This document shows, piece by piece, positions 3,436-36,079 of a stretch of DNA of 36,512 nt. Position 1 is the stretch's first letter. Each line of letters opens with the position of its first letter. The notes beneath the pieces were generated by a model. The model did no database searches. It had not been told where the DNA came from and saw only the letters and a list, made by a program, of their open reading frames with translations. Source of the stretch: Endomicrobium sp. Its GTDB lineage: Bacteria; Elusimicrobiota; Endomicrobiia; Endomicrobiales; Endomicrobiaceae. Made by a program: the position numbers and the translations under genes. The stretch lies in contig JAISRM010000144.1 in the NCBI GenBank assembly GCA_031273645.1, positions 1 through 36,512 on the forward strand. Direction: 5' to 3'.

Positions 3436-3612
3436 TTGCGCGCAATGCTTTAGAAAAACTATAATAAAATAATAACGCTGAACAATTGCATAAAGCGCGT
3501 TAAAATTGTAAAATAAATGTAAAATTTTTAAAAGTTATTGATTTTTGCGGCTTTTACCGCAGCTAATTTTACCCTGCAGCAAGGGTTATATGTCAACAAT
3601 TAAGAGGTGTCA

Positions 3613-18965: not shown

Positions 18966-20045
18966 ATGGAGAGAAAAGTAAAAGCGGCTCAGTACGGCTG
19001 CGGGAAAATGTCGGTTTACACAATGCGTTACGTTTATGAAAAAGGCGGAGAAATTGTAAGCGCTTTTGACGTAAGACCCGAAGTTATCGGCAAAGACATC
19101 GGCGACATTATAGGAGGCGGCAAAAAAGGCGTAATAGTGCGCGACGCAAAGGAAGCCGAAACCGTCTTTTCAAAAGACAAACCCGACATTTGTATTATCA
19201 CCACAATGAGCCTTATGCAGGATTTAAAAACTGCTTTTTTAATCTGCGCAAAAACCGGAGTTAACGCCATATCGACCTGCGAAGAAGCTTTTTATCCTCA
19301 AAATTCTTCTCCCGCTCTTACAAAAGAAATCGACGACCTTGCAAAAAAGAACAACTGCACAATTTGCGGCTCCGGATATCAAGACGTTTTCTGGGGAAAC
19401 CTTATAACAGTTCTTTCGGGCGCAACCCAGACGATAACAAAAATCAAAGGCAAATCGAGCTACAATGTTGAAGATTACGGAATAGCTTTAGCAAAAGCGC
19501 ACGGCGCGGGACTTGATCTTGAAACCTTTGAAAAAGAAATAGCTTCAGCCGACAGAGTAAGCGATGAAGAAAGACAAAAAGTTATAGAATCCGGCAGCTA
19601 TCTTCCTTCATACATGTGGAACGTCAACGGCTGGCTTTGCGACAAGCTCGGCCTTACAATACTGCGCCAAACGCAAAAAACGGTTCCGCAGACTTATTCT
19701 AAAGATTTAAAAAGTTCTACGCTTGCCATGACGGTTCCGGCAGGCCATGCAACAGGAATGTCTGCCGTAGTTACTACCGAAACAAAAGAGAACATAACGA
19801 TAGAATCAGAATGCATAGGCAAAGTTTACGCTCCCGAAGAATTTGACTGCAACGACTGGACGCTTATAGGCGAACCTTCAACACAGGTAATTATCAACAG
19901 GCCGGCGACGGTAGAACTTACCTGCGCCACAGTAGTGGGAAGAATTCCCGACGTTATAAACGCGGCGGCAGGTTATGTCAGCACAGACAAAATGCCGGCG
20001 CCTCAATACAGAACTAAACCTTTAAACGAATATGTAAAAAAATAA
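18966..20045 (+). CDS. NAD(P)-binding DapB-N-like oxidoreductase, candidate amine dehydrogenase (2,4-diaminopentanoate dehydrogenase-like family)
   Basis: 359 aa. The N-terminal Rossmann-like motif VKAAQYGCGKMSVYTMRYVYEKGGEIVSAFDVRPEVIGKDIGDIIG resembles that family. GGGAGG is the RBS. The functional call is by motif memory only. Confidence 0.5.
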   Translation: MERKVKAAQYGCGKMSVYTMRYVYEKGGEIVSAFDVRPEVIGKDIGDIIGGGKKGVIVRDAKEAETVFSKDKPDICIITTMSLMQDLKTAFLICAKTGVNAISTCEEAFYPQNSSPALTKEIDDLAKKNNCTICGSGYQDVFWGNLITVLSGATQTITKIKGKSSYNVEDYGIALAKAHGAGLDLETFEKEIASADRVSDEERQKVIESGSYLPSYMWNVNGWLCDKLGLTILRQTQKTVPQTYSKDLKSSTLAMTVPAGHATGMSAVVTTETKENITIESECIGKVYAPEEFDCNDWTLIGEPSTQVIINRPATVELTCATVVGRIPDVINAAAGYVSTDKMPAPQYRTKPLNEYVKK

Positions 20046-20060
20046 AAGGGAGCAAAATCT

Positions 20061-21692
20061 ATGGAAAAAAATAACGACGTTTTAGGCGCAATAAACAGGG
20101 GTAACCCTACTCCGTCGGGATTATGCACCCTTTGCAGAGCGGACTGTCAAGGCAAATGCGAAACATGGCTGTCGTCAATAAAAGGCAGAAAAATGCTCTA
20201 TCCCAGAGACTTCGGCGTTGTAACGGCAGGCAGCGGCATTGAAACGCAGACCGGAATTTCTTACGACGCGCTTAGAATAAACGGATACTGTTACGGAGCG
20301 GCCGGACTTCCTAAAGGCTTATCCGATTCTCAAGACGACTGCGTTTTTCCAAACGTTAACACCGAAATTTCATTTGGAACAAAAATCAAAACAAAAGCGC
20401 GCATCCCGTTAATGACGGGCGCTTTGGGCTCCACGTTTATAGCGGCAAAATATTGGAACTCTTTTGCCATAGGCGCGGCTTTAGCGGGGTTTCCGATAGT
20501 TATAGGCGAAAACGTCGTCGGCGTTGACAAATCTTCCTCGCTTGAAAACGGCAAAATAAACAAAGCTCCGGAACTTGAAAGGCGTATCGACGCGTATTTA
20601 AAATATTACGACGGGTTTGGCGCAATAATAGTTCAGATGAACGTTGAAGACACAAGAAACGGCGTGGCGCAATACATAATAGACAAGTACGGCGACAAAG
20701 TGATTTTAGAGCTGAAATGGGGGCAAGGCGCAAAAAATATCGGCGGCGAAATTCAAGTTACAGATTTGGAATACGCGCTTTTTTTAAAAAACAGAGGATA
20801 CGTTGTTGACCCCGACCCGACGGCCGCCGAAGTTCAGGCGGCGTTTAAAGCGGGCGCCATAAAATCTTTTGCCCGCCACAGCAGAATAGGATACACCAAC
20901 TTAAACACAGCAGCGCAAGTGCAGGAAGATTTCAAAAAAAGTGTAGAATATCTTCGGAGCATAGGGTTTAAGCGCATATCGCTTAAGACCGGTTCTTACG
21001 GTATGGAAGCGCTGGCTATGTCGATAAAACTTGCTTCCGAAACGGAACTCGATTTGCTTACTATAGACGGTTCCGGCGGCGGCACGGGTATGAGCCCGTG
21101 GAACATGATGCAGTCGTGGGGAGTTCCTTCCATACTTCTTCATGCAAAAGCCGCGCAATATGCGGCCGCTCTTAGCGCGCGCGGAAAAAAAGTTGCAGAT
21201 ATAGCTTTTGCCGGAGGGTTTGCAAGAGAAGACCAAATTTTTAAAGCTTTAGCGCTTGGCGCGCCGTTCGTTAAATTAATATGTATGGGCCGAGCCGTTA
21301 TGATTCCCGGCTTTTTAGGTTCAAACATAGAAGGCGCGATAAAACCTGACGAAAAAGACGCGCTAAACGGCAACTGGAGCCAGCTGCCGCCGTCGTTAAA
21401 AGAGCACGGCTCATCTGCGGAAGAAATTTTTGCCGGCTATTACGACGTAGAAAAGAAAATAGGAAAATCTGAAATGAAAAACATTCCTTACGGCGCAATT
21501 GCAATTTGGACGCTTGCCGATAAATTAACCTGCGGCTTGCAGCAGCTTATGGCGGGAGCGCGCAGATTTTCAATGCCGGCAATTTCAAGAGACGATATTT
21601 TTTCAGTCAACAGAGAAACAGAAAAAGAAACAGGAATTAAATTCATAACAGACGCCCAAGACGAAAGCGCGTTAAACATATTAAATTCCTAA
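20061..21692 (+). CDS. FMN-binding glutamate-synthase-family protein (GltB domain-2-like) with an N-terminal Cys cluster
   Basis: 543 aa with IDGSGGGTGMSPW and FAGGFAREDQIFKALALGAPFV, typical of the glutamate synthase FMN/TIM domain. C-x2-C-x3-C-x3-C (CTLCRADCQGKC) lies at aa 22-33. GGGAG is the RBS, 15 nt after the upstream stop. Confidence 0.75.
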   Translation: MEKNNDVLGAINRGNPTPSGLCTLCRADCQGKCETWLSSIKGRKMLYPRDFGVVTAGSGIETQTGISYDALRINGYCYGAAGLPKGLSDSQDDCVFPNVNTEISFGTKIKTKARIPLMTGALGSTFIAAKYWNSFAIGAALAGFPIVIGENVVGVDKSSSLENGKINKAPELERRIDAYLKYYDGFGAIIVQMNVEDTRNGVAQYIIDKYGDKVILELKWGQGAKNIGGEIQVTDLEYALFLKNRGYVVDPDPTAAEVQAAFKAGAIKSFARHSRIGYTNLNTAAQVQEDFKKSVEYLRSIGFKRISLKTGSYGMEALAMSIKLASETELDLLTIDGSGGGTGMSPWNMMQSWGVPSILLHAKAAQYAAALSARGKKVADIAFAGGFAREDQIFKALALGAPFVKLICMGRAVMIPGFLGSNIEGAIKPDEKDALNGNWSQLPPSLKEHGSSAEEIFAGYYDVEKKIGKSEMKNIPYGAIAIWTLADKLTCGLQQLMAGARRFSMPAISRDDIFSVNRETEKETGIKFITDAQDESALNILNS

Positions 21693-21786
21693 CAGACTGC
21701 GTCTGTTGAAAGGCAGGCTCTTTGTTTAAAAAATCGGCGTTAACTGCTGACAGTCAGCGATACTGCCGTACAGCTTGCTGCGCGGA
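21692..21786. repeat. Short repeat cluster R7 (P hairpin, S-like module, inverted palindromic box)
   Basis: ACAGACTGCGTCTGT (21692-21706) abuts the stop codon. It is followed by GTTAACTGCTGACAGTCAGCGATACTG and CCGTACAGCTTGCTGCGCGG (21766-21785). Another degenerate piece lies at 22085-22130. Confidence 0.8.
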
Positions 21787-22005
21787 GGTTCATTAATATG
21801 TTTGCGCCGGACGGCTATCGCCGGACGATTATCGTCGAGAATTTTTTGATGAAAATCGTCCGATGAGAATCGTCCGGCGCAATGTTGTCAAACGGAAGTT
21901 GTTCAACAGAAATTATCCCAACAAAAGTTTTCAGAGCAATCGCCGGACGCGCCGCCGCCGACGGCGGCAGCGCCAAAACCGCTGCATAATAAACGTCTAA
22001 GCCGC

Positions 22006-22045
22006 AAAAAGAAGCCCGCAAACAAAATCCGCGGGCTTCTTTTTT
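22006..22045. terminator. Strong bidirectional intrinsic terminator
   Basis: AAAAA, then GAAGCCCGC (22011-22019), an 11-nt loop, GCGGGCTTC (22031-22039) and TTTTTT. The 9-bp stem is perfect. Confidence 0.8.
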
Positions 22046-22197
22046 ACGCGCGCCCCTAATTTCAAAACGTCTGTAATGCAACCAAACAGTCTTCGGCTGT
22101 TTTATGAAATAGCCGTGTCTGTTTTGTCGTCAATTCTTAACGCACTCTTGTAATATTAATCTATCCCCAAAAACCAGACCATATGTAATATACATAT

Positions 22198-22239
22198 TTG
22201 ACTTTGGCGCTAACTTCGTGTACAATGTTAGCGCCAAAG
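22198..22239 (+). promoter_or_regulatory. abiE promoter with overlapping inverted-repeat operator
   Basis: TTGACT (22198-22203), 17-nt spacer, TACAAT (22221-22226). The perfect 13-bp inverted repeat CTTTGGCGCTAAC (22202-22214) / GTTAGCGCCAAAG (22227-22239) brackets the -10. AAGGA is the RBS before ATG 22253. Confidence 0.75.
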
Positions 22240-22252
22240 TAAAGGATTATAT

Positions 22253-22837
22253 ATGAACGAATTGAAATCTTTGCTTAAAAAGAAAAACGGTATTATTACA
22301 ACAGCGGAAGCAAACGCTATTGGTATATCTCGTGCGCAGCTGTGGCTGCTTGCTAAAAGCGGCGAGCTGGAGCATGTTGCTCACAGCATTTATATTTCTC
22401 CTGACATTTTACCTGACAAAATGTATATTTTACAGAAACAGCGGTCTAAATTAATCTATTCGCATGAAACAGCTTTGTTTCTTCATAATCTTACTGATAG
22501 AGACCCCATAAATTATAGTGTTACCGTTCCGATTGGATATAATACAAAACATCTTAAGCAAGACGGGGTAACGGTTTTTTCATTAAACTTAAGTTTATAT
22601 AAAAAAGATATCATAACAATGCAAACAGGTTTTGGGCATCCTGTGTTTCTGTATGGTCTTGAAAGAACAATTTGTGATTGTATAAGAAGCCGTAATCAGA
22701 TGGATATCGCAGTTGTTACTCAGGCTCTTAAAGAATATTCAAAACGAAAAGATAAAAATCTTAATTTACTTATGAAAACAGCTAAAGATTTTGGAATAAC
22801 AAAAGTTATGCGTAATTATATGGAGGTTTTGCTGTGA
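22253..22837 (+). CDS. abiEi: Type IV toxin-antitoxin system antitoxin/transcriptional regulator, AbiEi family
   Basis: 194 aa. The N-terminal wHTH GIITTAEANAIGISRAQLWLLAKSGELEHVAHSIY is typical of AbiEi_4. It has a 4-nt GTGA overlap with the downstream NTase gene. Confidence 0.8.
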   Translation: MNELKSLLKKKNGIITTAEANAIGISRAQLWLLAKSGELEHVAHSIYISPDILPDKMYILQKQRSKLIYSHETALFLHNLTDRDPINYSVTVPIGYNTKHLKQDGVTVFSLNLSLYKKDIITMQTGFGHPVFLYGLERTICDCIRSRNQMDIAVVTQALKEYSKRKDKNLNLLMKTAKDFGITKVMRNYMEVLL

Positions 22838-23661
22838 AAACATCTACGCAGCTAAAAGCCTTAATGAGAAATTTTGCCAAAGAAAGAAATATAAATCCGG
22901 AAATTGTTTTACGCAATTTTATGTTGGAGCGGTTGCTTGAAAGAATTTCAATTTCAAAATATAAAAATAAATTCATTCTTAAAGGCGGTATGCTGATATC
23001 GTCAATGGTTGGCATAGATACGCGCAGTACTATGGACTTGGACGCTGTTATTAAGAAAATGAAACTGACAGAAGATGATATAAAGTCAGTAATTAAAGAA
23101 ATTTTATCCGTTCCTATAGACGATAATGTCAGATTAACTTTTAAAAACATAGAAGAAATCCGAGAAGACGCAGACTATCCCGGCTACCGCGTTTCTGTTG
23201 AAGCAATTTTGGATAAGACAAAACAACTTATTAAAGTAGATGTCAGCGCAGGCGATTTTGTAACGCCGAAAGAAATTAAACATGATTTTAAACTTATGTT
23301 TGAAGATAGAAGTATATTGGTTATGGCATACAATGTGGAAACGGTTCTTGCGGAGAAATTTGAAACAACTATTGCCCGAGGTATAACTAACACAAGAATG
23401 AGAGATTTTTATGACATATATATTTTAACCAAAACGCATGCTTTTGATAAAAAGATTTTTAAGAGCGCCTTAGAAAAAACTGCTCAAAATCGTAATACAA
23501 TACAACAGATAGCAGAAACCGACAGCATAATAGAAACAATTGAAAAAAGTTCTGTCATGTCTGATTTATGGAAAAGATATCAGAAAAAATACGCATATGC
23601 AGCTGATATTTCTTGGACAACAATGGTGGATTCTGTAAGATTGTTAGCCGTCGAATTATAA
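22834..23661 (+). CDS. abiEii: Nucleotidyltransferase toxin, AbiEii/AbiGii family (DUF1814)
   Basis: 275 aa, GTG start. The NTase motif is FILKGGMLISSMVGIDTRSTMDLDAV, and the position downstream of abiEi is the canonical one. Confidence 0.8.
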   Translation: MKTSTQLKALMRNFAKERNINPEIVLRNFMLERLLERISISKYKNKFILKGGMLISSMVGIDTRSTMDLDAVIKKMKLTEDDIKSVIKEILSVPIDDNVRLTFKNIEEIREDADYPGYRVSVEAILDKTKQLIKVDVSAGDFVTPKEIKHDFKLMFEDRSILVMAYNVETVLAEKFETTIARGITNTRMRDFYDIYILTKTHAFDKKIFKSALEKTAQNRNTIQQIAETDSIIETIEKSSVMSDLWKRYQKKYAYAADISWTTMVDSVRLLAVEL

Positions 23662-24320: not shown

Positions 24321-25334
24321 TTAATAAATTACGCCTTTTATTTTATTGTACTCTTCTTTTACGGTTTGAACGGCTTCTTTAGGCTGTCTGTTTTCGTCAT
24401 AAACTCCAAAACTGTTTTCCATGCCTGCGCCAGGAGTTTTTTCATAAGAACCTTTTGCCGGATCATCGATGAGCATAAACAAATAGCCGCTTTCCATAGA
24501 TCTAATCAAAGTTTCAAGCGCTGCTTCTTGCGCGCGCTGCGCATTTGAACCGTCGGCGTCAACCGACGCTCTGCCAAATTCCCCCAGCACCCACGGCATG
24601 TTTTTTGCAAAAGAATACCAATCGTCTTTGGCAAACCCGAAATTTGAACCTCTGTAAATGTTTGTCATTACAAGGTTAAGCCCGAGCTTTACATATTTTT
24701 TGTATTCTTTTTTTGAAGGAAGTTCTCCGTGAACAGTGGCTACAATTTTATTAGGAGCAAGTTTTTTGGCGGTTTTTACGGCGAGCTTAAGTTTTTTAAG
24801 CCATTCTTTTTTAGTAAACCATTGATCGTAATGATAATTGTATTCGTTTCCCAAAACTATCATCAAAATGGCAGGGTGATTGCCAAACATTTCAAGATAC
24901 TGCTCCATCAATCCTTCGGAACGCATATCTTCATAAGAAAAGCCTGCCGCAACTGTAATTCCTTCTTCAAGAAAAGCGTCTAAAATTTGAAGAGTTTGAG
25001 TTTTGTTAAGCGAACCGTCTTCAAAATAAGCGCCCAAAGGTCTGTAAGTTCTTATGGAATTTGCGCCTATATTTTTTATCAAAGATAAATCCGTTTTATA
25101 ATGCTGCCAATAAGACAGACCGGCAATGTCGGGAGCGTAACATACGCCTTTGATAATATAGCGCGCTTTTTTGCCTTTTTCGTCAGTAACTATTATTTTT
25201 CTATCGGCCACTTTAGCTTTAGCCACATAAATACCGTCGGGATTTTTCTTTGCCGCAACATGAGCGCATGAAAACAAAAAAGCGGACGCGCAAACAAAAA
25301 CTGCCGATAATAATATGTTTTTTATCATACTCAT
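24321..25334 (-). CDS. Clan GH-A (GH5-like TIM-barrel) glycoside hydrolase lipoprotein
   Basis: Lipoprotein signal MSMIKNILLSAVFVCASAFLFSC. Also IKGVCYAP and GANSIRTY, a candidate acid/base LGNEYNYH and a candidate nucleophile VLGEFG. The ORF extends to 25427, but that part runs toward repeat sequence, so ATG 25334 (or 25328) is preferred. Family-level call only. Confidence 0.6.
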   Translation of the reverse strand: MSMIKNILLSAVFVCASAFLFSCAHVAAKKNPDGIYVAKAKVADRKIIVTDEKGKKARYIIKGVCYAPDIAGLSYWQHYKTDLSLIKNIGANSIRTYRPLGAYFEDGSLNKTQTLQILDAFLEEGITVAAGFSYEDMRSEGLMEQYLEMFGNHPAILMIVLGNEYNYHYDQWFTKKEWLKKLKLAVKTAKKLAPNKIVATVHGELPSKKEYKKYVKLGLNLVMTNIYRGSNFGFAKDDWYSFAKNMPWVLGEFGRASVDADGSNAQRAQEAALETLIRSMESGYLFMLIDDPAKGSYEKTPGAGMENSFGVYDENRQPKEAVQTVKEEYNKIKGVIY

Positions 25335-25639: not shown

Positions 25640-28600
25640 CTATGCGGCGGACAGTATGCTTCTTATTGCGCGGGTGTCTGCTGTGTCGGGCTTAAAATTG
25701 TCTTTATCAAATTCAACTTCTTTGCTGTACACCATTATAAGTTCTATTGCTTTTTCGGCTGTTTTTGTGCCAAGCGGGGCTTGTTTAAGCGCATCTTCTT
25801 TGTCTGGCGTTTCTGCGTCCGGCCGGGCTTGCATAAGCGCATCTGTAATTTTTTCAATATAATTTTTATCATTGGCATTATTTAAACCGTCTATAACAGA
25901 TTCATTGTCAGCGGGATACTTCGTCTCAAAATATTTTATCGCAAGCAGCTGCCCGAGCAGTTTTTCTATATTTTTATTTTTCAAGCCGGAAGCGCGGCCT
26001 TCGGCTTTTAACTCTGCTGCGATAAGAAGTTTTTCAAGCGCGCCTTTATAAAAGGCTGTCATTATTTTATGCTTTTCTTTTAGTATTTCCTGTTTTTTTG
26101 CTATTGTAAGTTTTTCTTCTGACAACAATAATGAAGTTTGCGCCTCTATTTTATCTATATATCTTGAAAAAATAGTGTTGTAATAAAGATCTAACGGCAG
26201 CTGCGAGTATTGGCTAATAACTGCATGAACCGTAATATCCGGAAACTCTTTTAAGATTTTAGCGACGTCGATATTTCTTGCTGTTTCTAAAGCGGTTTCG
26301 GGCGTCAACGGACGGTCAAAAATGTTTGCAAGCGCTTTTGAGGAAGTCCATATATCAAGAACGTACTTTGCAAAACCCGAACGATCTGCGCCAAGATGAT
26401 TTTCTATAGCGGATTCATATATGACCGTTACGATGTTTGAATTTCTTAAAGCATTGTCAAAATCGGCGGTTTTATCGTCTATTATTTCAACGTTTTGGGG
26501 GCTTACCGCAATGTCTAAAGCGTCGGTAATAGTTTTATTTTCAACGGAATACGTTCCGTCAAAAAGTTTCTGCAATGCGGGTTCCGCCGCGTCTTCAACC
26601 ATGATGCTTATTCCGGCGGCGCGCGCTGTTTGGATAACGGAATTTAATTTGCCGGCATTACTTAGATTTTCGGCAAGAGCGGCGGTAATTATAATGTTGC
26701 CGTTAGTTGCTTTTGTAAAAATTGTTTCAAAATATTTGTTAAAATCTTCAATTGTGTTTATTTTGTCTAAAAATACTATAAACCTCTTTGCATACGTCCA
26801 TGCCTCAGCCTGCTTTAGCGTACGCGTATGGTCAAACAGCGTTAAAGCATAATCGCCTTGCATTCTGTCAACAGCCATATAAATGCGCGGTATGCCGTTT
26901 TCGGCATATTCATAGCCGTTTTTAATTTTGTTCAACACCTGCGCAGCTTCTTTAGATAAATTTTCGTAAAAATACGTTTTTGCAGGGTCATAAGGCTGCT
27001 TTGTAAGAGTTTCAAACTCGCTCCGAAGTTGCGCATATGAAACTGTTGCATCAACTACCAGCGGATCTATAGATATTTGACCGGAAACCGGAAGATAAGA
27101 GCTTATTATTTCTTTGAATTTGCCCTCAGACAATAATTGCGCTAAATTAGCGGCGTCTATATTTTCTGCATAGATAACGACAGTTCCGTCAATATAACCG
27201 CTATATACGGATTTATCGCCGGTTTTTATTCCGGTATTTGAAAAAGAATCCATGTTTTCGGCAAACAAAGCGGCGTCAGCCATATATACGGGCAAAGACG
27301 CTCTGTTTTCCGATAATGTTAAAGCCTGAGAACCAAATATTTTTTTTGCGGCTTCAAATTTATCAGAAGAGACATTGATTATGTTTACTTCCGCAACTGA
27401 TTGAGTTGTTTTGCCTGTAATCTGTTTTAGCAAGGGAACTTTAACAAAAAGTTTGTTATATAAATTTTTAAGAAGCCTGCCTATATCGGCGAATGTGCCG
27501 TCTTTGGTCATCATATATATAAATAAAGCTGCAGCCGCTATCGCTAATGCGGGAGACACAAAATTAAAAAAACCTGCGGCCGCAAGAACGCCTATCATAG
27601 CAATAGGAGAACTTTGCAGCCTGCTGCCTTCGGAAGTTCTTTGGGAAAGGCGCGCCGCCGCGTCCGCCTGCGCGGCATCTTGCGTCAAGGGCGCTTGCGC
27701 TGAAGGCTCTTGAGTTGAAGACTCTTGAGTTGAAAACTCTTGGGTTGAAAGTATAAAGTCCGCAAGCTCCTGCGAATATTTTGATGCATTTATTATTTCT
27801 GTTTCAAGAAACTCGCGCGCATTTGTATCAGAAGTTCTTTTCCATGCGTCTTGCATAAGTTTAAAAATTATATTCAAATCTGTTGCCGGCGTTTTCATGT
27901 CAAAAATTTCCGGCGAAATATCATCTGTAAAACCATTATTATCTAAAAGCGCGTACTGAGAAGAGGCGTACCTCCGGCTTCCCATATTTAAACTCCACGC
28001 AAATATAAGATTATCTCTGTTTAGATTAATCGTTTTGTTTTTGAAAACAATATAAGATTTTGCCGCTCCCCGAGCTAAATGTTCGTCTAAAATATCGGCG
28101 TTTTGCGCCGCTATAGAAGCCCTGAAATCGTAGTGGCTGTCAGTTGTCGGTAATTGCGCGTTTTTAAAAGCCGCTAAAATATCTTCGGAAAGCTTGTAAG
28201 AAGGATTTGCAATTTTTAAATAGAGAAAAGCAAAAGCTCTGTATTTAATTTCTTTAAAATCTTCGTTTTTATTTTCAACTATATCGGCTAAGAAACTCTG
28301 ATTTTGCCTGTTTTTAATAATTTGCATATACTTAATATCGCTGTCATCAAAACGCTGTTGCAGTTCTTCCTGAGAAGCAGCGTCCATATTATCTGCAATT
28401 GCATTATCAACCATAGCAAGATAATCAAAAACTTCGCCGGCAGATTCTGCGTTTTGAAATATATTTGACTGTATCAAATCATCAAGCTTTAATAAAGCGT
28501 TTTGACGCATTGAAACGATTTTTGAAAATATGTTATCTTTGTTTAGCCTGCCAATTTCGCTTATATCGGTTCTCAACTTTCTTCTGAAATCGCTCATCGC

Positions 28601-31600
28601 AAGAATATCTACTCCGGGCGCCTGCGCATTATAAAATAAATATCTGTTGACGCCGTCGCTTATTACAGGCATTTCTTTTAACAGCTGCTTAACAAATTCA
28701 TTATCGGTTTCCACCGGCACTAAGAAATCTGTTTTGCTGTCCCAATTGTAAGAAATCTGTAAAATGTTAAAAGCGTCCTGCAAATTTTTGTCTTGCGTAA
28801 AGTCGCTGCTTTGTATGCTGTTTCTTTGCGCTTGTATGAACTTCTCTGCATCATATACGCTGTCAAAAAACAGCTCTGCAATTAAAGGCGTAACTTGAGC
28901 AGGCGCGGTTTGCGCGGGCGCTTGCGCGGGCGTTTGCGCAGGCGCAGAGGTTTTGCGTCCAAATAAATTATTAATAAACCGCTGTACTCTTTTTAAGACA
29001 GGAAGCTGTTGCGCTTCTTCATCTTCTTTTTTTCTGCCTGAAGCAAACAAAGCAAAAGGAAGAAGAAATGCCCCCGAAGTTTTAGCTTTACCGGCATTTA
29101 AAGAGCCTGCCGACAACACTGTAAAGGAATTAAAATTCGGTTTGCCGTTATTATTTGGATTTAATTTGCCGTTATAATGAAGAGTCGTCGCGCCAAAGTC
29201 TGCCGCAACTTCTTTAAGCTTTCCGGAACGAGTTACAACAGCTTCATAATAACCGTTCTTTTTCGTCATTTTAACTGTCCCTGCAACGGTCCCGGCAAGA
29301 TTGTCATTGCTATAATAAACCGTAGAGCCGTCTTCATAAATCATTCTTAAAAGAAAATTCGGCGAATTAGAATTGCTGTCAAAACCTATTCTTATAACAT
29401 CCTCTTTTTCAATATTTTTTCCGGCCATCCCATCAAACACGGCAACCGCCCAATTCTCTCCGCCATAATAATTTGGCGCGCCGTATTTAAACTTTACCGC
29501 CGCTTCGGCGCTTTGCGCTGCTTGAGCTTTCGGTTTTTCCGCATCTACAGACTGCGAAGGTTTTTGCGCCGGCGCAGCTTTGGCTATTTCTTGCGGGGTC
29601 GCAACATAAGTCTTTTTTAACTCAGATACTATGACAAAAGGCTGTACGTCTTTTGGAAAAAGTCCCCATGCAGTTGAAGCCAGACTTTTTAACTTTGGAA
29701 ATATGATCCAGCCGTGTCCGGTTTGAGCAAAATAATCAACATCGGAATAAGGCAAAAGTCCCTCAGATGATTTTGCGCTTTCAATGTATTGCTTCATGGA
29801 ATTTATTGCGGCAAGCAAAAGCGGGTCAGGCGTAACGGCTAACACTTCTTCCGCCGCTTTTATAAAACCGAAAGTCCATTCAAAACTGACTATCTTGTTC
29901 TGCCTTGAATTTATAAAATCAACTCCTATATATTCGCCTTTTTCATTTTTTACTCCGGCTCCTTCCAGCGTGCGTTTTAAAAGATCTTTGCTGAAATTGC
30001 CGTCATTCATATTTTTATTTAATTTTTCTACTCCCAGCGCCAATATCATCCACGTTTGACAGTCTGTGGCAAATTTTAAATTCTTTGAACCTTTGTCATC
30101 TATTCCCGTTACAAAATAACCAATCTCTTTGTTGTACATTCCCATTAAAGCTTTTTCAAGCTTGTCGGCTGCGGCGGCATAAGTTTTTCTGTCGGTTGCA
30201 TTTGCGTATTGCGCTAAAGCTCTTAAAGCCGATAAAGCCGATATATTATTTTCAACGGATACGACTTTATTGTAATCTATGCCCAGATACGCATAATGCC
30301 CTACTTTATCTTCGGGAGCCATTACTATTAAACCTGAAGGCTGCTGCAAAGCGATCATGGCTTTGCCTAAATCGTTCATAATTTCATAAGCTTTATTGCC
30401 GATGTCCGTGCCTTTGTAGGCATTGTATATGTCGGCCATAGTCATTGCGATCCATGCGTTTTCTCCGGTTATAGGCTGAGCCTGATCTTTAAGGAATCTT
30501 CCATAAATGTCCACGATTTTCCAAAAATATCCGTGTCCGGCCGCAATATTTGCTCCGTTATAATTAAAATCTTTATTGCTTCTTACATCTCCTGCCTGAT
30601 GTAGAGCGGTAACCATTTTGCCGACCAGATCTTTGTTTTCTTCAGGGTATAAAAGCAGCGCTTTTACATAAACGCTCCAATCATAAAGTATAACGCCCCT
30701 TTCGGCTATAAGTTTTTGCGCGTCATTGTTTATTTCGTCGGTTGAACCGGCATAACTTCCGGTCAGCGCAGCGCCCTTAGAAAATACCGGATAAACGCCG
30801 CGTATCTGATTGTTGCTTATCGGAATTTCCACAGTAACTTGAGGCGTTGGAAGCGGATTAGGGTTGACCGGAGCGCCGGCAAGACTGTGCGCCAGCATAA
30901 GCATGAAAAATAATCCTACAATAAATTTCGCCATTTTGACCAGCGCCGACGTTGATTTGCTCGGCTGTTCAGACGGCTTTGTCTCGTCTTTTTCACGCTG
31001 CTTTTGAAAAGCCGCTTTTTGAAAAAATTCAGGCATTCTGCCTATAAGTTCGTAGGGAATTTCGTCAACAGATTTATCTTTGTAATTTTGTTCTATTTCG
31101 GGGATAACGCCGTAAACGCCTTTTTTTGATAAATCGTAATTTGAGTAGGCGGCGTAAATGAAAATTTTCTTAAACGTTTCATAAGTTTGGGCATTATTAA
31201 TATCGGTCAAAGAATATAAATCAAAAGAGTTTGAAAGAACATTTTGCGCTAAAGCGATTATGTCTGTAAACCCAAGCGTGAAACTTTCGAGATTTTGCAT
31301 GTCGGAACTTTCCGGCGGCTTTTGAACGTTTTGAAGCGTGTAAGAGCCGTCGGCATTTTTTGAAAACGTAATTTCTGCGCCGGATATTTTAATATTATAA
31401 TAAGTATCCGATACGTTGATTACAAGATTATTTTCCCCGTAAACATCTTTTAAAAAGCCGGTAAGCATATCAAGAGCGCCGGCGGTAAAAACGCTTTGCT
31501 GCGTTAAAGCGCCTATCAATTCTTGCGGCTTCACATTTTCAAAAATTGACTTTAAATCGCTTACGGCTTTCTTCGCCTGCTCAGAACTTAGAGCCTTTAG

Positions 31601-33229
31601 CTCATATAAGCGCGCAGCCGCGTTAAAAATAGTGAACGCTCTTTCAAGCGCGGGCAAGTCAAGCGACGGCGCTAAAGTCTGGCTGAAAAACATGCTCTGC
31701 TGGGCTATTATCTGCCTGTAATTTGCTTCGGCGGCTTCAAGCCCTTCGGTAATTCTGGGCGTTATTACGACATTGCTTATTTTTTTTGCGTCTAAAAGTT
31801 CCGATATTCCGTGAGTATGGTATCCTCCGGTCACGACTATTATTATTTCTGTTGAATTATTTAAAACGGCAAGAGGCGGCTCGTTTTCAATTTTATCGCC
31901 GGATACAAGCTGCGTGTTTTTATTGATATTTTGCAAAAATATTTCGTTTCTTTGATTGTTAACGCTGTAATAATCGTTTAAAACTGGAAAATTTTCGCTT
32001 AAAGATTTTAAATGATCGGAAGATGAATATTTTGCATATATGTCTCTAAATCTTTGAAAAGTTTCCATAAAGTAGCGTTCGTCTTTTGCCGTAAGAGAAT
32101 TGGTAAGATAGCCTTGAAAAAAGTAAAAGAAATTGTTTAAGAAAGATATTTCGTTTTCCTGTATGGAAGAAGAAAGAGCCGATATTATTGTTTCGCGCAG
32201 TTTCTGTTCCTGAAAAAATAAAGCCACGGGGTTGATCTGCGAACTTAAATTTTTTACGGCGACAAAACCGCGAAGATTCGGTTTTGAATTTCCTTCAATT
32301 CCGTAATACTCTATATATTTGCATAAAGCGTCAATATCTTTAAAATTGCCGGTGCCTTCCGACATTTTGTTAAATTGGGAATAACTGATTTTGTTTTTCA
32401 GTTCCGAAACGTATTGGCTAAGTTCGGCGTTTACTTTGTTTACTTTAAGTTTTTCGGCCATTTCGTTTATCGCAATGATTTTTTTAAGTTCTCCGTACTC
32501 GCTTTCGTCTATCGGCAAAATGTTGCCGTAAACTTCGGGAGCGGCGTTTATCTGCTTTACGTATTTAAACATGCTTGCATAAAATTTGTGGTCGCTTATT
32601 TTTTTCGCATTATATCTTGCCGCAAGATTTAAGAAATTTTTGCAGGACGCGCCCAAATATTTGTTTGAAAGCCAGCCGATTTCATTTTTAACTTTAGCTA
32701 TGACGACTTGGTACTGGCTTTCATTTGAATATATTTTTCCTAAACGCTCGACATTTTCTTTGTGAACATTTGCGTCTTCAAGCCCGAAAACGTTGTTCTT
32801 ATTTTTTTCAAACGCATAATATTCCACGCCGGTAAGCCTTCCGTCTAAAATAAGCTGTTCGGCTATTTTGTTTTTAATATCGCCGCCGGAAGAAATTGAC
32901 GAAAGCCACGAAAGATCCACTTTTCCGCTTGCGCCTTCCACATAAATCGCTTTTACATTATATTTGTCGTCAAGTTTTTCTATTATCTGAGCTATATTTT
33001 TTTGAACCTGAGGATGACTGTGCAAATCCTGAATATTTACGATGACCTGTTTTGTGCCGTAACTTTTGGCGTCTATTATGTGGCCTAAATCAGACGAAAA
33101 AATTTGGTCGTTTAAAACGTTGACGTCGTTTGCCGCAATCTGCGCCGCGCCGGCCGCTGCAGACTGGGCTGTAACGCTCCATAAAAAACAAAATGCGGTA
33201 AAACTTGCAAGCGTTTTCTTAATACTCAT
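25640..33229 (-). CDS. Giant 2529-aa modular envelope protein, family unknown
   Basis: Uninterrupted ORF. GGAGG (33239-33235), 5 nt, then ATG 33229 (Met13 of the supplied translation). The Sec signal is MSIKKTLASFTAFCFLWSVTAQSAAA. There are three internal hydrophobic segments and three low-complexity linkers. I recognise no full-length family. Confidence 0.85.
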   Translation of the reverse strand: MSIKKTLASFTAFCFLWSVTAQSAAAGAAQIAANDVNVLNDQIFSSDLGHIIDAKSYGTKQVIVNIQDLHSHPQVQKNIAQIIEKLDDKYNVKAIYVEGASGKVDLSWLSSISSGGDIKNKIAEQLILDGRLTGVEYYAFEKNKNNVFGLEDANVHKENVERLGKIYSNESQYQVVIAKVKNEIGWLSNKYLGASCKNFLNLAARYNAKKISDHKFYASMFKYVKQINAAPEVYGNILPIDESEYGELKKIIAINEMAEKLKVNKVNAELSQYVSELKNKISYSQFNKMSEGTGNFKDIDALCKYIEYYGIEGNSKPNLRGFVAVKNLSSQINPVALFFQEQKLRETIISALSSSIQENEISFLNNFFYFFQGYLTNSLTAKDERYFMETFQRFRDIYAKYSSSDHLKSLSENFPVLNDYYSVNNQRNEIFLQNINKNTQLVSGDKIENEPPLAVLNNSTEIIIVVTGGYHTHGISELLDAKKISNVVITPRITEGLEAAEANYRQIIAQQSMFFSQTLAPSLDLPALERAFTIFNAAARLYELKALSSEQAKKAVSDLKSIFENVKPQELIGALTQQSVFTAGALDMLTGFLKDVYGENNLVINVSDTYYNIKISGAEITFSKNADGSYTLQNVQKPPESSDMQNLESFTLGFTDIIALAQNVLSNSFDLYSLTDINNAQTYETFKKIFIYAAYSNYDLSKKGVYGVIPEIEQNYKDKSVDEIPYELIGRMPEFFQKAAFQKQREKDETKPSEQPSKSTSALVKMAKFIVGLFFMLMLAHSLAGAPVNPNPLPTPQVTVEIPISNNQIRGVYPVFSKGAALTGSYAGSTDEINNDAQKLIAERGVILYDWSVYVKALLLYPEENKDLVGKMVTALHQAGDVRSNKDFNYNGANIAAGHGYFWKIVDIYGRFLKDQAQPITGENAWIAMTMADIYNAYKGTDIGNKAYEIMNDLGKAMIALQQPSGLIVMAPEDKVGHYAYLGIDYNKVVSVENNISALSALRALAQYANATDRKTYAAAADKLEKALMGMYNKEIGYFVTGIDDKGSKNLKFATDCQTWMILALGVEKLNKNMNDGNFSKDLLKRTLEGAGVKNEKGEYIGVDFINSRQNKIVSFEWTFGFIKAAEEVLAVTPDPLLLAAINSMKQYIESAKSSEGLLPYSDVDYFAQTGHGWIIFPKLKSLASTAWGLFPKDVQPFVIVSELKKTYVATPQEIAKAAPAQKPSQSVDAEKPKAQAAQSAEAAVKFKYGAPNYYGGENWAVAVFDGMAGKNIEKEDVIRIGFDSNSNSPNFLLRMIYEDGSTVYYSNDNLAGTVAGTVKMTKKNGYYEAVVTRSGKLKEVAADFGATTLHYNGKLNPNNNGKPNFNSFTVLSAGSLNAGKAKTSGAFLLPFALFASGRKKEDEEAQQLPVLKRVQRFINNLFGRKTSAPAQTPAQAPAQTAPAQVTPLIAELFFDSVYDAEKFIQAQRNSIQSSDFTQDKNLQDAFNILQISYNWDSKTDFLVPVETDNEFVKQLLKEMPVISDGVNRYLFYNAQAPGVDILAMSDFRRKLRTDISEIGRLNKDNIFSKIVSMRQNALLKLDDLIQSNIFQNAESAGEVFDYLAMVDNAIADNMDAASQEELQQRFDDSDIKYMQIIKNRQNQSFLADIVENKNEDFKEIKYRAFAFLYLKIANPSYKLSEDILAAFKNAQLPTTDSHYDFRASIAAQNADILDEHLARGAAKSYIVFKNKTINLNRDNLIFAWSLNMGSRRYASSQYALLDNNGFTDDISPEIFDMKTPATDLNIIFKLMQDAWKRTSDTNAREFLETEIINASKYSQELADFILSTQEFSTQESSTQEPSAQAPLTQDAAQADAAARLSQRTSEGSRLQSSPIAMIGVLAAAGFFNFVSPALAIAAAALFIYMMTKDGTFADIGRLLKNLYNKLFVKVPLLKQITGKTTQSVAEVNIINVSSDKFEAAKKIFGSQALTLSENRASLPVYMADAALFAENMDSFSNTGIKTGDKSVYSGYIDGTVVIYAENIDAANLAQLLSEGKFKEIISSYLPVSGQISIDPLVVDATVSYAQLRSEFETLTKQPYDPAKTYFYENLSKEAAQVLNKIKNGYEYAENGIPRIYMAVDRMQGDYALTLFDHTRTLKQAEAWTYAKRFIVFLDKINTIEDFNKYFETIFTKATNGNIIITAALAENLSNAGKLNSVIQTARAAGISIMVEDAAEPALQKLFDGTYSVENKTITDALDIAVSPQNVEIIDDKTADFDNALRNSNIVTVIYESAIENHLGADRSGFAKYVLDIWTSSKALANIFDRPLTPETALETARNIDVAKILKEFPDITVHAVISQYSQLPLDLYYNTIFSRYIDKIEAQTSLLLSEEKLTIAKKQEILKEKHKIMTAFYKGALEKLLIAAELKAEGRASGLKNKNIEKLLGQLLAIKYFETKYPADNESVIDGLNNANDKNYIEKITDALMQARPDAETPDKEDALKQAPLGTKTAEKAIELIMVYSKEVEFDKDNFKPDTADTRAIRSILSAA
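27707..27751 (-). repeat. In-frame 15-bp x3 tandem repeat (encodes STQEF/STQES/STQEP linker) in the giant gene
   Basis: CTCTTGAGTTGAAGA / CTCTTGAGTTGAAAA / CTCTTGGGTTGAAAG, read directly. Confidence 0.9.
28909..28944 (-). repeat. In-frame 12-bp x3 tandem repeat (encodes the PAQ(A/T) linker) in the giant gene
   Basis: TTTGCGCGGGCG / CTTGCGCGGGCG / TTTGCGCAGGCG, read directly. Confidence 0.9.
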
Positions 33230-33239
33230 TTGTTCCTCC

Positions 33240-33279
33240 AAAAATAAAAAACCGGCTTTTAACAAGCAAAGCCGGTTTT
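33240..33279 (-). terminator. Intrinsic terminator/attenuator hairpin spanning the stop codon of the 169-aa gene, immediately upstream of the giant-gene RBS
   Basis: A perfect 12-bp stem (33268-33279 pairs with 33248-33259) with an 8-nt loop. On the minus strand it is followed by TTTATTTT. The stop codon at 33259-33261 lies at the stem/loop edge, and the GGAGG of the giant gene starts at 33239. Confidence 0.6.
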
Positions 33280-33820: not shown

Positions 33821-36079
33821 TTATGCGTCTGGTTTTGTCATAACGCAGACGAAGCCTGCTTTAACCGTAATTTTATATTCCCCGTCAACATAATCCGCTT
33901 TTGCGCTGCCGCCTTTGGAAAGGTCGCCAAAAAGTATTTCATCGGCAAAAGGGGATTTAATTTTTTCTTCAATAACGCGGCCGATGTTTCTTGCGCCAAA
34001 TTTTGCGCTGTAGCCGTCTTGGGCAAGTTTGTTTATACAATTGTCGCTGGCTTCAAACGTAATATTTTTTTGAGCAAGCAAATCTTTAAAGAGATTGAGT
34101 TCTTTGCAAACAATAGATTTAATCATTTCTTTTGAAAGATGTTTAAAATGAATAACAGCGTCAAGCCTGTTGCGAAATTCGGGATTAAAAATTTTTTCCA
34201 CCGCGCTGTTTACTGCAGAAAAGTCTATAGATTTATCATTAAAACCGATAAGCTTTTTTCCTATTTCATGAGCGCCGGCATTGCTTGTCATAATTAAAAC
34301 CGCATTTCTAAAGTCAGCTCTGCGGCCGTTATTGTCAGTTAAAGTTGCATAATCCATTATTTGAAGCAAAATATTGTAAATGTCGCTGTGAGCTTTTTCA
34401 ATTTCATCTAAAAGCACAACGCAATGAGGGTGTTTTCGCAGCGCGTCGGTAAGCAAGCCGCCTTCTTCATAGCCGACATATCCCGGAGGGGAACCTATAA
34501 GACGCGATATCGTGTGTTTTTCCTGATATTCGCTCATATCAAAACGGTGTAAAGTAATTCCTAAAATGTCGGCAAGCCCGCGGGCAAGCTCTGTTTTGCC
34601 TACTCCGGTCGGACCTACAAACATGAAATTTGCAATTGGTTTTTCTAAAGCGCGCAGCCCCGCCCGGGATTGTTTTATTGCTTTTACGACGGCGCTTACG
34701 GCATCATCCTGACCAAAAATGCGTTCTAACAATTTGCTTTCCAAAGATTTCAGTTTATCTTTTTCGCTTTCTATTACAGAACGCTGCGGTATTTTTGCCG
34801 ATTTTGCAATAATGCTTTCTATCAGTTTAGCGTCAATTTTTTCTGTTTTCATATTTTTTGCAGCTTTTATATGCGTAAAAGCGCCTGCTTCGTCAATTAT
34901 ATCAATAGCTTTGTCGGGAAGTCTGCGTTCGGTAATATATTGCGCAGAAAGCTTTACGGCAGTTTCAATTGCTTCGTCTGTATAGCTGACATGATGAAAT
35001 TCTTCATACTTAGATTTAAGACCCTGCAAAATAGTAATGGAATCGTCGATACTTGGTTCATCTATGTCAATTTTTTGAAAACGTCTTGAAAAAGCCCGCT
35101 CTTTATCAAAAAATTTAGCGTATTCTTCGTAAGTGGTGGAACCTATGCAGCGTATTTTGCCTGAGGCAAGGGCAGGTTTTAAAAGGTTTGCCGCATCAAG
35201 GGAATTTCCCGACACAGAGCCAAAACCTACAAGAGTGTGAATTTCGTCAATAAAGAGAATTGCGTTTTCCCTATTGACAATTTCATCTATAACCCGTTTT
35301 AAGCGCTCTTCAAAATCACCGCGGTATTTTGTTCCGGCAAGTAAAGCCGCTAAATCAAGAGAAAAAATAGAAAAATCGGCAAGCATAGGAGCAATATCAT
35401 TGTTGACAATTTTTTGAGCAAGGCCTTCGATGATTACGGTTTTTCCCACTCCGGAATCGCCTACAAGAACGGGATTATTTTTAAGGCGGCGGCAAAGAAC
35501 CTGTATTATGCGTTCAAGTTCGGTTTCGCGCCCGATTAAAGGTTCTAATTTGTTTTCGCCTGCAAGTTTTGTGAGGTTTATCGCATAACGTTCAAGCGCA
35601 TTTTTCTTTTTGCCCGCTTTTTCATGTGGATCTGAAATATTTTCTTCTTCATCTTCAATGTCATTATGAGAAAGCGCCGTCAGCAAATCAATTCGTTTAA
35701 TTCCGGCTTTACGCATAGAATAAGAACTGTAATATTTGGTTTCATCATATAAAGCTATTAAAATATCTGCAATGTCAACCGTATCTTTTTGAGCGTTCAG
35801 GCTGTTTTGCTGCGCGCGGTTTAGAATGTTTTGAAAACCTATGCTGCTTACGGGTTCTGTTTTTGCGCTAATAACGTCAACTTTTTGTTTAAAGTATTCT
35901 TCAATAAGAGTTCTAATCAATTTTATGTCTGCGCCGCAGTATGAAAATATTTCCTGAACCTCGCTGAAAGCGAGCGCCGCATATAAAATATGTTCGGGCG
36001 TAATATATTCGTGACGGTATTTGCGCGCCTCATTACAGGCGGCTTCTATAACAGATTGCGAAAGCTGGGAAATGTCCAT
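33821..36079 (-). CDS. clpA: ATP-dependent Clp protease ATP-binding subunit ClpA
   Basis: 752 aa. It has a Clp N-domain ([11 protein letters not shown]) and two AAA+ modules (GDSGVGKT / ILFIDEIH and [11 protein letters not shown] / [11 protein letters not shown]) with no ClpB-type middle domain. AGAGG is the RBS. Confidence 0.92.

Follow-up and report, generated by a model that had tools for sequence, protein, structure and literature searches.

The 36,512-nucleotide stretch considered here (positions 1 to 36,512 of contig JAISRM010000144.1 from Endomicrobium sp., assembly GCA_031273645.1; hereafter the window) carries on its minus strand a giant open reading frame (ORF), whose product of 2529 amino acids (P0001) is an in-frame fusion of complete pre-protein cassettes of secreted enzymes. 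Three hydrophobic segments inside this ORF, designated (i), (ii) and (iii), had been noticed in the original prediction, which offered a fusion fossil, a multi-pass topology and a cleaved polyprotein as possible explanations. That all three belong to a single ORF was borne out, since the minus-strand frame remains open without a break from 25640 to 33265. The TTG codon at 33265, from which residues had been counted, is not the beginning of the gene: translation starts from the ATG at 33229, which has the Shine-Dalgarno sequence GGAGG 6 nt upstream, so that the protein has 2529 residues and the earlier numbering equals that of P0001 plus 12. In those earlier numbers segments (i) (aa 778–799) and (iii) (aa 1887–1919) do occupy positions 30934..30869 and 27607..27509, as had been stated, but segment (ii) starts at 29080 and not at about 29074.

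P0001 represents an Elusimicrobiota-specific family of giant modular envelope proteins. Its homologs (30 giant proteins of 1.9–4.4 thousand amino acids; below, proteins bear handles with P and loci handles with L) come, whenever the source is named, from Endomicrobia/Elusimicrobiota, except for one Omnitrophota protein (P0029), which is a distant homolog of the N-terminal module M1. Among GTDB species representatives 319 loci encode M1, nearly all of them in Endomicrobiales and often with many paralogs per genome, and the family has no Pfam model despite this abundance; Pfam and NCBIfam scans of the whole giant protein and of its three segments gave no useful match. All giant homologs contain M1, a C-terminal module of about 580 aa is common to P0002–P0013, and the middle part is variable.

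Kyte-Doolittle maxima in a sliding frame of 19 residues reach 2.07 for segment (i), 1.93 for segment (iii) and 1.24 for the N-terminal signal. Since whole-protein shuffles give a comparable mean maximum (1.99), hydropathy alone does not go beyond chance and the case rests on comparison with other sequences. Judged by such comparison, segments (i) and (iii) are real features, as their positions are kept in homologs and segment (i) can also be aligned with an N-terminal lipoprotein signal peptide. The three segments are not equivalent to one another.

Segment (i) and the cassette it precedes

Segment (i) begins at residue 766 of the 2529 in P0001, far from the N-terminus, and is composed of an n-region K..K.MAK with three lysines within the 15 residues preceding the core, an h-region FIVGLFFMLMLA of just 12–13 residues and a c-region HSLA/GA. 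It is followed by the Pro-rich tether VNPNPLPTPQVTVE, similar to the linker found after the lipidated cysteine in lipoproteins. This copy has no cysteine, and the lipobox [LVI][ASTVI][GAS]C is absent at this place (AHSLAGAP). Features of a Sec signal cleaved by signal peptidase I are there, including small residues at −3 and −1, and both S-L-A/G and A-G-A/P are possible cut sites; AHSLA/GAP thus looks like a signal peptidase I substrate.

At least 14 giant homologs from Endomicrobia have the segment in this same position. Within P0001–P0010 the hydrophobic stretch occupies one alignment position, after the motif IPYELIGRMPEFFQKAAF.KQ and a linker variable in both sequence and length; in every case its n-region is basic and a Pro-rich stretch comes next, the downstream modules being different in different proteins. 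Seven of these ten proteins have cysteine in the lipobox column (ITSAC/G, SLAAC/G, TTSAC/G, FSAC/S, MTAC/G, ITSC/S and NLAC/G) at a background Cys content of 0.25%, or 3–8 residues per protein, and further lipobox-type cases were registered in P0032, P0033, P0038, L006, L077 and L086. The cysteine is lost in P0001, P0005, P0006 and P0039. Simple counting of internal lipobox motifs (11 in forward versus 5 in reversed sequences) is too weak, and we therefore relied on the aligned column.

BLAST alignments of the query with P0002, P0006 and P0007 pass unbroken through the junction, which makes the fusion older than the divergence to 38% identity. The basic n-region, the uncharged hydrophobic core and the Pro-rich tether are kept in these four proteins with almost no identical residues, and a pattern maintained in this way behaves as a signal or anchor under selection rather than as a neutral relic. 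In P0040 a decayed, charged stretch was found at the equivalent place. Of the proposed “fusion fossil”, fusion may be retained, while “fossil” is too weak a word for n- and h-region features that persist down to 38% identity.

Stand-alone relatives point to the same origin. The gene next downstream of the giant ORF codes for a lipoprotein with a GH2_C-like TIM barrel, which can be aligned from the signal peptide to the last residues with internal cassettes of P0003, P0004, P0005, P0008 and P0009. In P0003 the TIM-barrel cassette is followed by a second lipobox signal (FIMLSSAAC/SS) and then by an (alpha/alpha)6 module of the query type. Loci L001–L003 are syntenic with the window and contain the giant gene, the stand-alone TIM-barrel lipoprotein gene and a helicase gene, the order of which varies. 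For the (alpha/alpha)6 module, stand-alone relatives are exemplified by P0035 (47% identity, N-terminus MKPTHLNRFFLVLAMALLLPAASC/GG, encoded on a Bacteroidota contig with SusC/SusD), by the lipoproteins P0034 and P0036, to which further N-terminal domains are added, and by P0077 with a signal of the signal peptidase I type; the beta module stands alone with a signal peptide in P0047 and P0041. About 25 of 30 complete metagenomic ORFs of 570–730 aa are stand-alone cassette relatives with N-terminal signal peptides, and two distant barrel relatives (P0056 and P0066) have none. Thus the cassette segment does exist elsewhere as separate genes, with own signal peptides for both modules, and the resemblance of segment (i) to the signal peptide of a separate secreted protein, pointed out originally, is explained by descent from one.

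The nearest stand-alone (alpha/alpha)6 relatives (P0034–P0037, P0151 and L082; 44–48% identity) include Bacteroidales/Bacteroidota lipoproteins, one of which (P0036) has BACON domains, and this suggests that the module may have been exchanged between Bacteroidota and Endomicrobia. Twin-arginine-like signals (RRRFL or STRREFLK plus a hydrophobic stretch) were found internally, directly before the (alpha/alpha)6 module, in the more distant large ORFs P0049, P0051, P0054, P0061 and L088/L089; some of these may reflect mis-called starts.

Folds of the cassette were assessed with an AlphaFold (AF2) model of aa 778–1475 in the earlier numbering, where confidence is expressed as the predicted local distance difference test (pLDDT). 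An (alpha/alpha)6 barrel of the six-hairpin glycosidase-like type is followed there by a beta-sandwich, and segments (i) and (ii) fall into low-confidence regions. With the barrel, Foldseek retrieved 304 PDB matches at E up to 0.001, including BT_3782, mannanases of glycoside hydrolase (GH) family 76, AGE/cellobiose 2-epimerases, GH94, GH63 and GH116 (E ~1e-7, target-normalised TM-score 0.6–0.69, identity 10–13%). No Pfam or PDB sequence match was obtained with the cassette, its profile or 12 relatives, and the term “glycosidase-like” is therefore a statement on fold only: at this level the earlier designation stands, and membership in a GH or Pfam family does not follow from it. Invariant residues of the barrel include E in GENAW and D, Q and W in DCQTW.

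Table 1. Features of the giant ORF and adjacent genes in the window
Feature	Coordinates	Strand	Characteristics
Small partner protein, 169 aa	33259..33768	minus	Signal peptide, about 100 aa, one transmembrane segment (YIGLLRLF) and basic tail
Giant ORF, 2529 aa (P0001)	25640..33229	minus	Elusimicrobiota-specific family of giant modular envelope proteins
SP1, N-terminal signal-peptide-like segment MSIKKTLASFTAFCFLWSVTAQSAAAGAAQ	33140..33229	minus	Flank charges: N net +3, C net −1
M1, family-defining N-terminal module	30995..33139	minus	Invariant IQDLHxH, EG, NxxRN, VTGGYHT.G
Segment (i), internal signal peptide from fused pre-(lipo)protein cassette	30869..30934	minus	Conservation, alignment, charge counts
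Pro-rich tether VNPNPLPTPQVTVE	30827..30868	minus	Pro-rich equivalents in all aligned homologs
(alpha/alpha)6 barrel, six-hairpin glycosidase-like fold	29630..30817	minus	AF2 pLDDT ~90, Foldseek
Beta-sandwich module	29114..29497	minus	AF2 pLDDT ~80; stand-alone homologs P0047, P0041
Segment (ii), short hydrophobic stretch plus RKK in disordered linker (aa 1396–1413)	29027..29080	minus	Not a conserved topogenic element
Ala/Pro/Gln-rich low-complexity linker TSAPAQTPAQAPAQTAPAQVTP	28886..28951	minus	
Module 3, all-helical, poorly conserved	27635..28855	minus	pLDDT 30–65
Segment (iii), 33-residue hydrophobic hairpin (16 + SP + 14)	27509..27607	minus	Position of the family membrane hairpin
Conserved C-terminal alpha/beta module	25718..27400	minus	Common to P0002–P0013; pLDDT 75–90
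Extreme C-terminus RSILSAA-COOH	25643..25663	minus	Family-wide end motif
Stand-alone lipoprotein (MSMIKNILLSAVFVCASAFLFSC/AHV), GH2_C-like TIM barrel	24321..25334	minus	Paralog of internal cassettes in relatives

Other parts of the giant protein

The sequence of the N-terminal signal is unusually conserved throughout the family (KKxxxxxTAxCFL..GQSFA), and the module M1 behind it terminates in the conserved motif IPYELIGRMPEFFQKAAFQKQ. M1 gave no sequence match in Pfam, NCBIfam or PDB, and its profile gave none against PDB. Its invariant motifs presumably resemble those of TraB/GumN/TIKI-like hydrolases with their two GxxH motifs and conserved acidic and Arg residues; in an hhalign comparison with PrgY (TraB/GumN) only the second GxxH motif was aligned (VVTGGYHTxG with VVIGQAHLRG) at a probability of 1.6%. 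Short M1 ORFs at loci L011, L050, L065 and L070 were considered as products of gene fission at the signal, and this idea was rejected, as they are frameshifts in the middle of the domain.

In many paralogs M1 is followed by an intramembrane-protease-like domain instead of a single signal-like helix. It is S2P/M50-like at aa 700–960 of P0019 (HESAH ... NMLP..DG) and CPBP/Abi-like (WEE[IL]xFR ... FxxxH ... HxxxN) in P0016, P0018, P0025 and at many loci, for example L012, L017, L021, L030, L031 and L056; the motifs of both types were read by eye and have no Pfam match. The gene of a 169-aa protein precedes the giant gene in the window, L001 and L081. The same protein makes up residues 1 to ~165 of the giant proteins P0014 and P0015, and a similar N-terminal extension is present in L027, L028, L044 and L045. 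The 169-aa protein looks like a conserved partner.

Segment (ii) had been regarded as a sorting or anchor signal closing the cassette, and this assignment failed on several grounds. Its hydrophobic run comprises only 11–14 residues with pLDDT of about 30, and its Kyte-Doolittle peak in a 13-residue frame (1.69) is the same as that of the barrel core helix LAVTPDPLLLAAI (1.68). Equivalent stretches are non-hydrophobic in P0003 (AYLDKRGIK) and P0007 (RFLNRLGITKEK), HMMER alignments of homologs end ahead of this segment, and stand-alone beta-module proteins end without such a tail. NCBIfam sorting-signal models gave no match to it at E up to 10; compared with C-terminal sorting signals (LPXTG, PEP-CTERM, GlyGly-CTERM etc.), the segment is internal and has no signature motif, only its RKK cluster being suitable. 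In P0002 and P0006 the C-terminal module is immediately preceded by a short segment of this kind; a return helix resembling it was sought in P0003, P0004, P0008, P0009 and P0010, where none was found.

Module 3 shows only weak local similarity over ~100 aa to P0012, P0016, L010 and L039; a homolog search with this module and the hairpin (27500–28867, minus strand) returned zero matches and did not recover even the window's own protein. Segment (iii) was expected to be a possible two-helix hairpin, which agrees with its position: in most homologs a hydrophobic hairpin is situated ahead of the conserved C-terminal module and is often followed by N(I/L)xxH(F)RWN. In the query this hairpin is short, lacks the H..N motif and is modelled by AF2 with low confidence. 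Both module 3 and the hairpin are missing from P0002, the closest homolog; of the hairpin only a short segment is left there and in P0006, and its counterpart in P0012 is non-hydrophobic. Since it may be so reduced, the hairpin seems not to change the membrane side of the chain. Its flanks are net positive on both sides in nearly all homologs.

Comparison of the C-terminal half with PDB by Foldseek gave no match with E below 0.01. The motif [IML]L[SATKE]AA-COOH ends nearly all complete members of the family, even those of 20–30% identity and different architectures; ends of the LSAA type were registered in P0002–P0017, P0021–P0027, P0032, P0033 and at most complete L-loci. We take this end to resemble the LAA end of the ssrA tag. 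The clpA gene (33821..36079) is located two genes upstream of the giant gene, and P0019 contains an internal ClpB-like double AAA+ module; conserved adjacency to clpA was considered and dismissed, since it is not kept at the P0002 locus.

Orientation of the signals and fate of the chain

All statements on topology made here are based on hydropathy and charge counts only. The N-terminal signals have flank charges of +2 to +4 on the N-side and −2 to 0 on the C-side across the family, segment (i) has +2 to +6 and −4 to +2 in 11 of 11 elements, and thus the N-terminal signal, segment (i) and the hairpins all show the same N-side-in polarity. Apart from the weak segment (ii), no return segments were found between the N-terminal signal and segment (i) or between the cassette and the hairpin. 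Consequently, one uncut chain cannot obey all these signals. The number of crossings from M1 to the C-terminal module is 1, 3 or 4 among homologs if segment (i) is counted, and even in all of them without it (after manual correction). Parity of crossings and polarity of signals, as far as they can be read from the sequences, argue against a regular alternating topology.

According to these data P0001 is a mosaic envelope protein, in which pre-protein cassettes were fused in frame into a family scaffold consisting of the N-terminal signal, M1, the membrane hairpin, the C-terminal module and the LSAA tail. Segment (i) is the signal peptide brought by the cassette of (alpha/alpha)6 and beta-sandwich modules, lipoprotein-type in most relatives and deprived of its cysteine here, and it appears to be under selection as an export-type element with the N-side in and the C-side out. 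Most likely, it would serve to direct both modules of the cassette to the periplasmic side. Chances that it still acts as an export or anchor element in this orientation, whether by way of cleavage or with M1 in the cytoplasm, appear to be about even. With a canonical signal peptide at the N-terminus, segment (i) can act only if the chain is cut upstream of it or if M1 is cytoplasmic. The upstream cut is a tentative option. A cytoplasmic M1, with segment (i) as a signal anchor by analogy with OpuABC (see below), seems rather unlikely; in its favour, an LMW phosphatase domain directly adjoins M1 in P0011, and four counted CPBP-type helices would put the ATP-grasp domains of P0018 and P0025 on the side of M1, but the count of seven helices in P0019 points the opposite way, so that these counts are contradictory. 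Several other observations weigh against a working segment (i). The N-terminal segment is a textbook signal peptide, and where the partner is fused in front (P0014 and P0015) the charge pattern again puts M1 outside; if so, the element behind M1 enters the translocon as part of a translocating chain. Internalised signals in the endoplasmic reticulum (ER) were neither cleaved nor served as stop-transfer sequences (PMC2114505). Loss of the lipobox cysteine in the query and three homologs makes lipidation non-essential. Neither a cleavage motif upstream of the segment nor a protease for such a cut was identified, and the internal Met is not conserved, a start codon being absent there in most homologs.

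If the cut upstream of segment (i) does occur, the giant protein would be a precursor of three products, of which M1 would be exported, the glycosidase part (one or more enzymes) secreted or anchored by lipid, and the C-terminal protein held by its hairpin, each following its own N-terminal signal, which is conceivable though not probable. Removal of segment (i) by signal peptidase I here and by signal peptidase II in Cys-bearing relatives is a similarly doubtful part of this scheme. Such a polyprotein is a sub-case of the mosaic with an acting segment (i) and the sole reading that obeys every signal, as all topogenic elements are N-side-in without return segments, and parity is mixed (1, 3, 4) with segment (i) as a span and even without it. 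Cleavage of giant bacterial proteins has already been proposed in Omnitrophota (10.1101/2023.11.21.568195). Paralogs with intramembrane-protease-like domains exactly at the place of segment (i) (S2P-like in P0019; CPBP-like in P0016, P0018, P0025 and at many loci) fit this scheme as well, and in its speculative extension proteases of these paralogs would make the upstream cuts. However, the chain must be cut on the cytoplasmic side before insertion, for which no conserved site or enzyme was found, and the linker ahead of segment (i) is variable. Searches of the literature revealed no precedent for internal lipoboxes or for such polyproteins in bacteria, which also counts against it, and we know of no such bacterial polyprotein ourselves; the alternation of stop-transfer and signal helices typical of viral polyproteins is not observed either, because there are no return helices. 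An uncut chain may instead be exported by its N-terminal signal via Sec as a whole, with segment (i) as a passenger or, at most, a peripheral membrane-binding patch, and to this we attach a limited likelihood; it is about as questionable that the hairpin (iii) would be the sole anchor and segment (i) a slowly decaying fusion relic. Tandem pre-proteins in the ER provide a precedent (PMC2114505), and the short h-region of the query, the loss of cysteine in about a quarter of homologs, the decayed segment of P0040 and the even parity without segment (i) are all in line with complete export. So is the depletion of cysteine: P0001 has 4 Cys per 2529 aa (0.16%) with zero in the last 1470 residues, whereas cytoplasmic proteins encoded in the window contain 1–3% and another large protein with a signal peptide (1348 aa, CarboxypepD_reg repeats, 3607..7653, plus strand) contains 0.15%. 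But the ClpB-like ATPase region of P0019 is also Cys-free, so that this marker of sidedness is unclean and was dropped as decisive. Complete export leaves unexplained why no homolog down to 38% identity has given up the basic n-region and the uncharged core, and the positive flanks of the hairpin predict a cytoplasmic location.

Among the three explanations offered originally, a regular alternating multi-pass topology fits worst. M1 would be periplasmic in this case and segment (i) would serve as a stop-transfer element with the N-side out and the C-side in, which is improbable, and there is as little reason to expect the glycosidase module, module 3 and the C-terminal module in the cytoplasm with segment (iii) forming an in-out-in hairpin. 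Such a scheme is the expected output of grammar-based predictors; the polarity of the hairpin suits it, the LSAA tail would be cytoplasmic, with clpA as a nearby gene in the window, and distant barrel relatives P0056 and P0066 are devoid of signal peptides. Nevertheless, all 11 of 11 elements of the segment (i) type have a polarity opposite to this scheme, the membrane face would be wrong for the lipobox and tether, the close relatives that stand alone are secreted or are lipoproteins, P0003 has two successive signals of this type with nothing between them that would return the chain, and parity is inconsistent among homologs. Finally, translation might start internally at Met778, so that the same mRNA would also yield the cassette as a pre-protein of its own. 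Met heads the signal in the query, P0004, P0005 and P0008, and the upstream region is A-rich, as before several true starts in the window that have no Shine-Dalgarno sequence. There is no Shine-Dalgarno sequence ahead of Met778 itself, just as in those genes; no Met precedes the signal in P0002, P0009 and P0010, and an equivalent start codon is absent in L002 (second signal), L006 and L077. Since most homologs have no start codon there, this option is very unlikely.

Relation to known systems and genes nearby

The expected place of a signal peptide is the N-terminus, and upon gene fusion one would expect it either to disappear or to become a consistent membrane anchor. The latter took place in OpuABC of Lactococcus lactis, where subunits of an ABC importer (binding protein and permease) are fused and a “signal anchor” is retained (PMC2861598). 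As in the giant protein, the targeting sequence of a once-separate extracytoplasmic protein persists there internally with the N-side in and the C-side out, and in OpuABC it keeps the domain outside. Unlike the giant protein, OpuABC has upstream a polytopic membrane domain with a cytoplasmic end, which makes its topology consistent, while segment (i) is preceded by a soluble module of 750 residues with its own signal peptide, and the lipobox and tether are kept in most relatives. The same layout as here (signal, domain, second complete pre-protein) was engineered in ER pre-proteins, where the second signal was either ignored (PMC2114505) or cleaved with both flanks translocated (PMC2113988). 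Those constructs are artificial and eukaryotic, whereas the Endomicrobium arrangement is natural, bacterial and conserved throughout the family.

Giant multi-transmembrane proteins of Omnitrophota, the “Archaeovorins”, also combine very long ORFs and many hydrophobic segments with suspected cleavage (10.1101/2023.11.21.568195), and they share with the proteins studied here carbohydrate-active modules, among them (alpha/alpha)6 barrels that only structure prediction reveals, as well as unreliable topology predictions. They belong to another family, since M1, the C-terminal module and the LSAA tail are characteristic of ours, whose proteins are shorter by a factor of 10–30; those of them that were scanned showed no SecA-DEAD or C39 domains, and the cassette origin of internal signals is demonstrated directly in the Endomicrobia family. 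Internal signal peptides delimit luminal products within one ORF in flavivirus and pestivirus polyproteins too (PMC3113308), but stop-transfer and signal helices alternate there and topology is consistent, whereas the giant protein has no return helices. Thus retention of signal anchors after fusion (OpuABC) and giant bacterial ORFs with suspected cleavage (Omnitrophota) were already known. What is new is direct evidence for in-frame insertion of complete pre-lipoprotein cassettes, conservation of all features of a lipoprotein signal at an internal position, placement of internal signals behind another signal of the same polarity, and the presence of fused and unfused copies side by side.

Giant proteins of termite-gut and rumen Endomicrobia retain complete lipoprotein-type signals, from the n-region and h-region to the lipobox and tether, at a distance of hundreds of residues from the N-terminus. 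Since the same enzyme cassettes are also encoded next door as separate lipoprotein genes, the family offers natural matched pairs of fused and unfused forms, which could show what Sec, Lgt and Lsp of bacteria do with internal signals and whether membrane processing of polyproteins occurs in bacteria. If it does, the processing of viral polyproteins at the membrane would have a cellular counterpart.

The surroundings of the giant gene show one more peculiarity. The helicase and TIM-barrel lipoprotein genes, which adjoin in L001 and L003, are separated in the window by four genes of the plus strand (18966..23661) coding for a DAP_DH_C-like dehydrogenase, a Glu_synthase-domain protein and an AbiEi/AbiEii toxin-antitoxin pair, and at 22–24 kb the G+C content goes down to 0.35.

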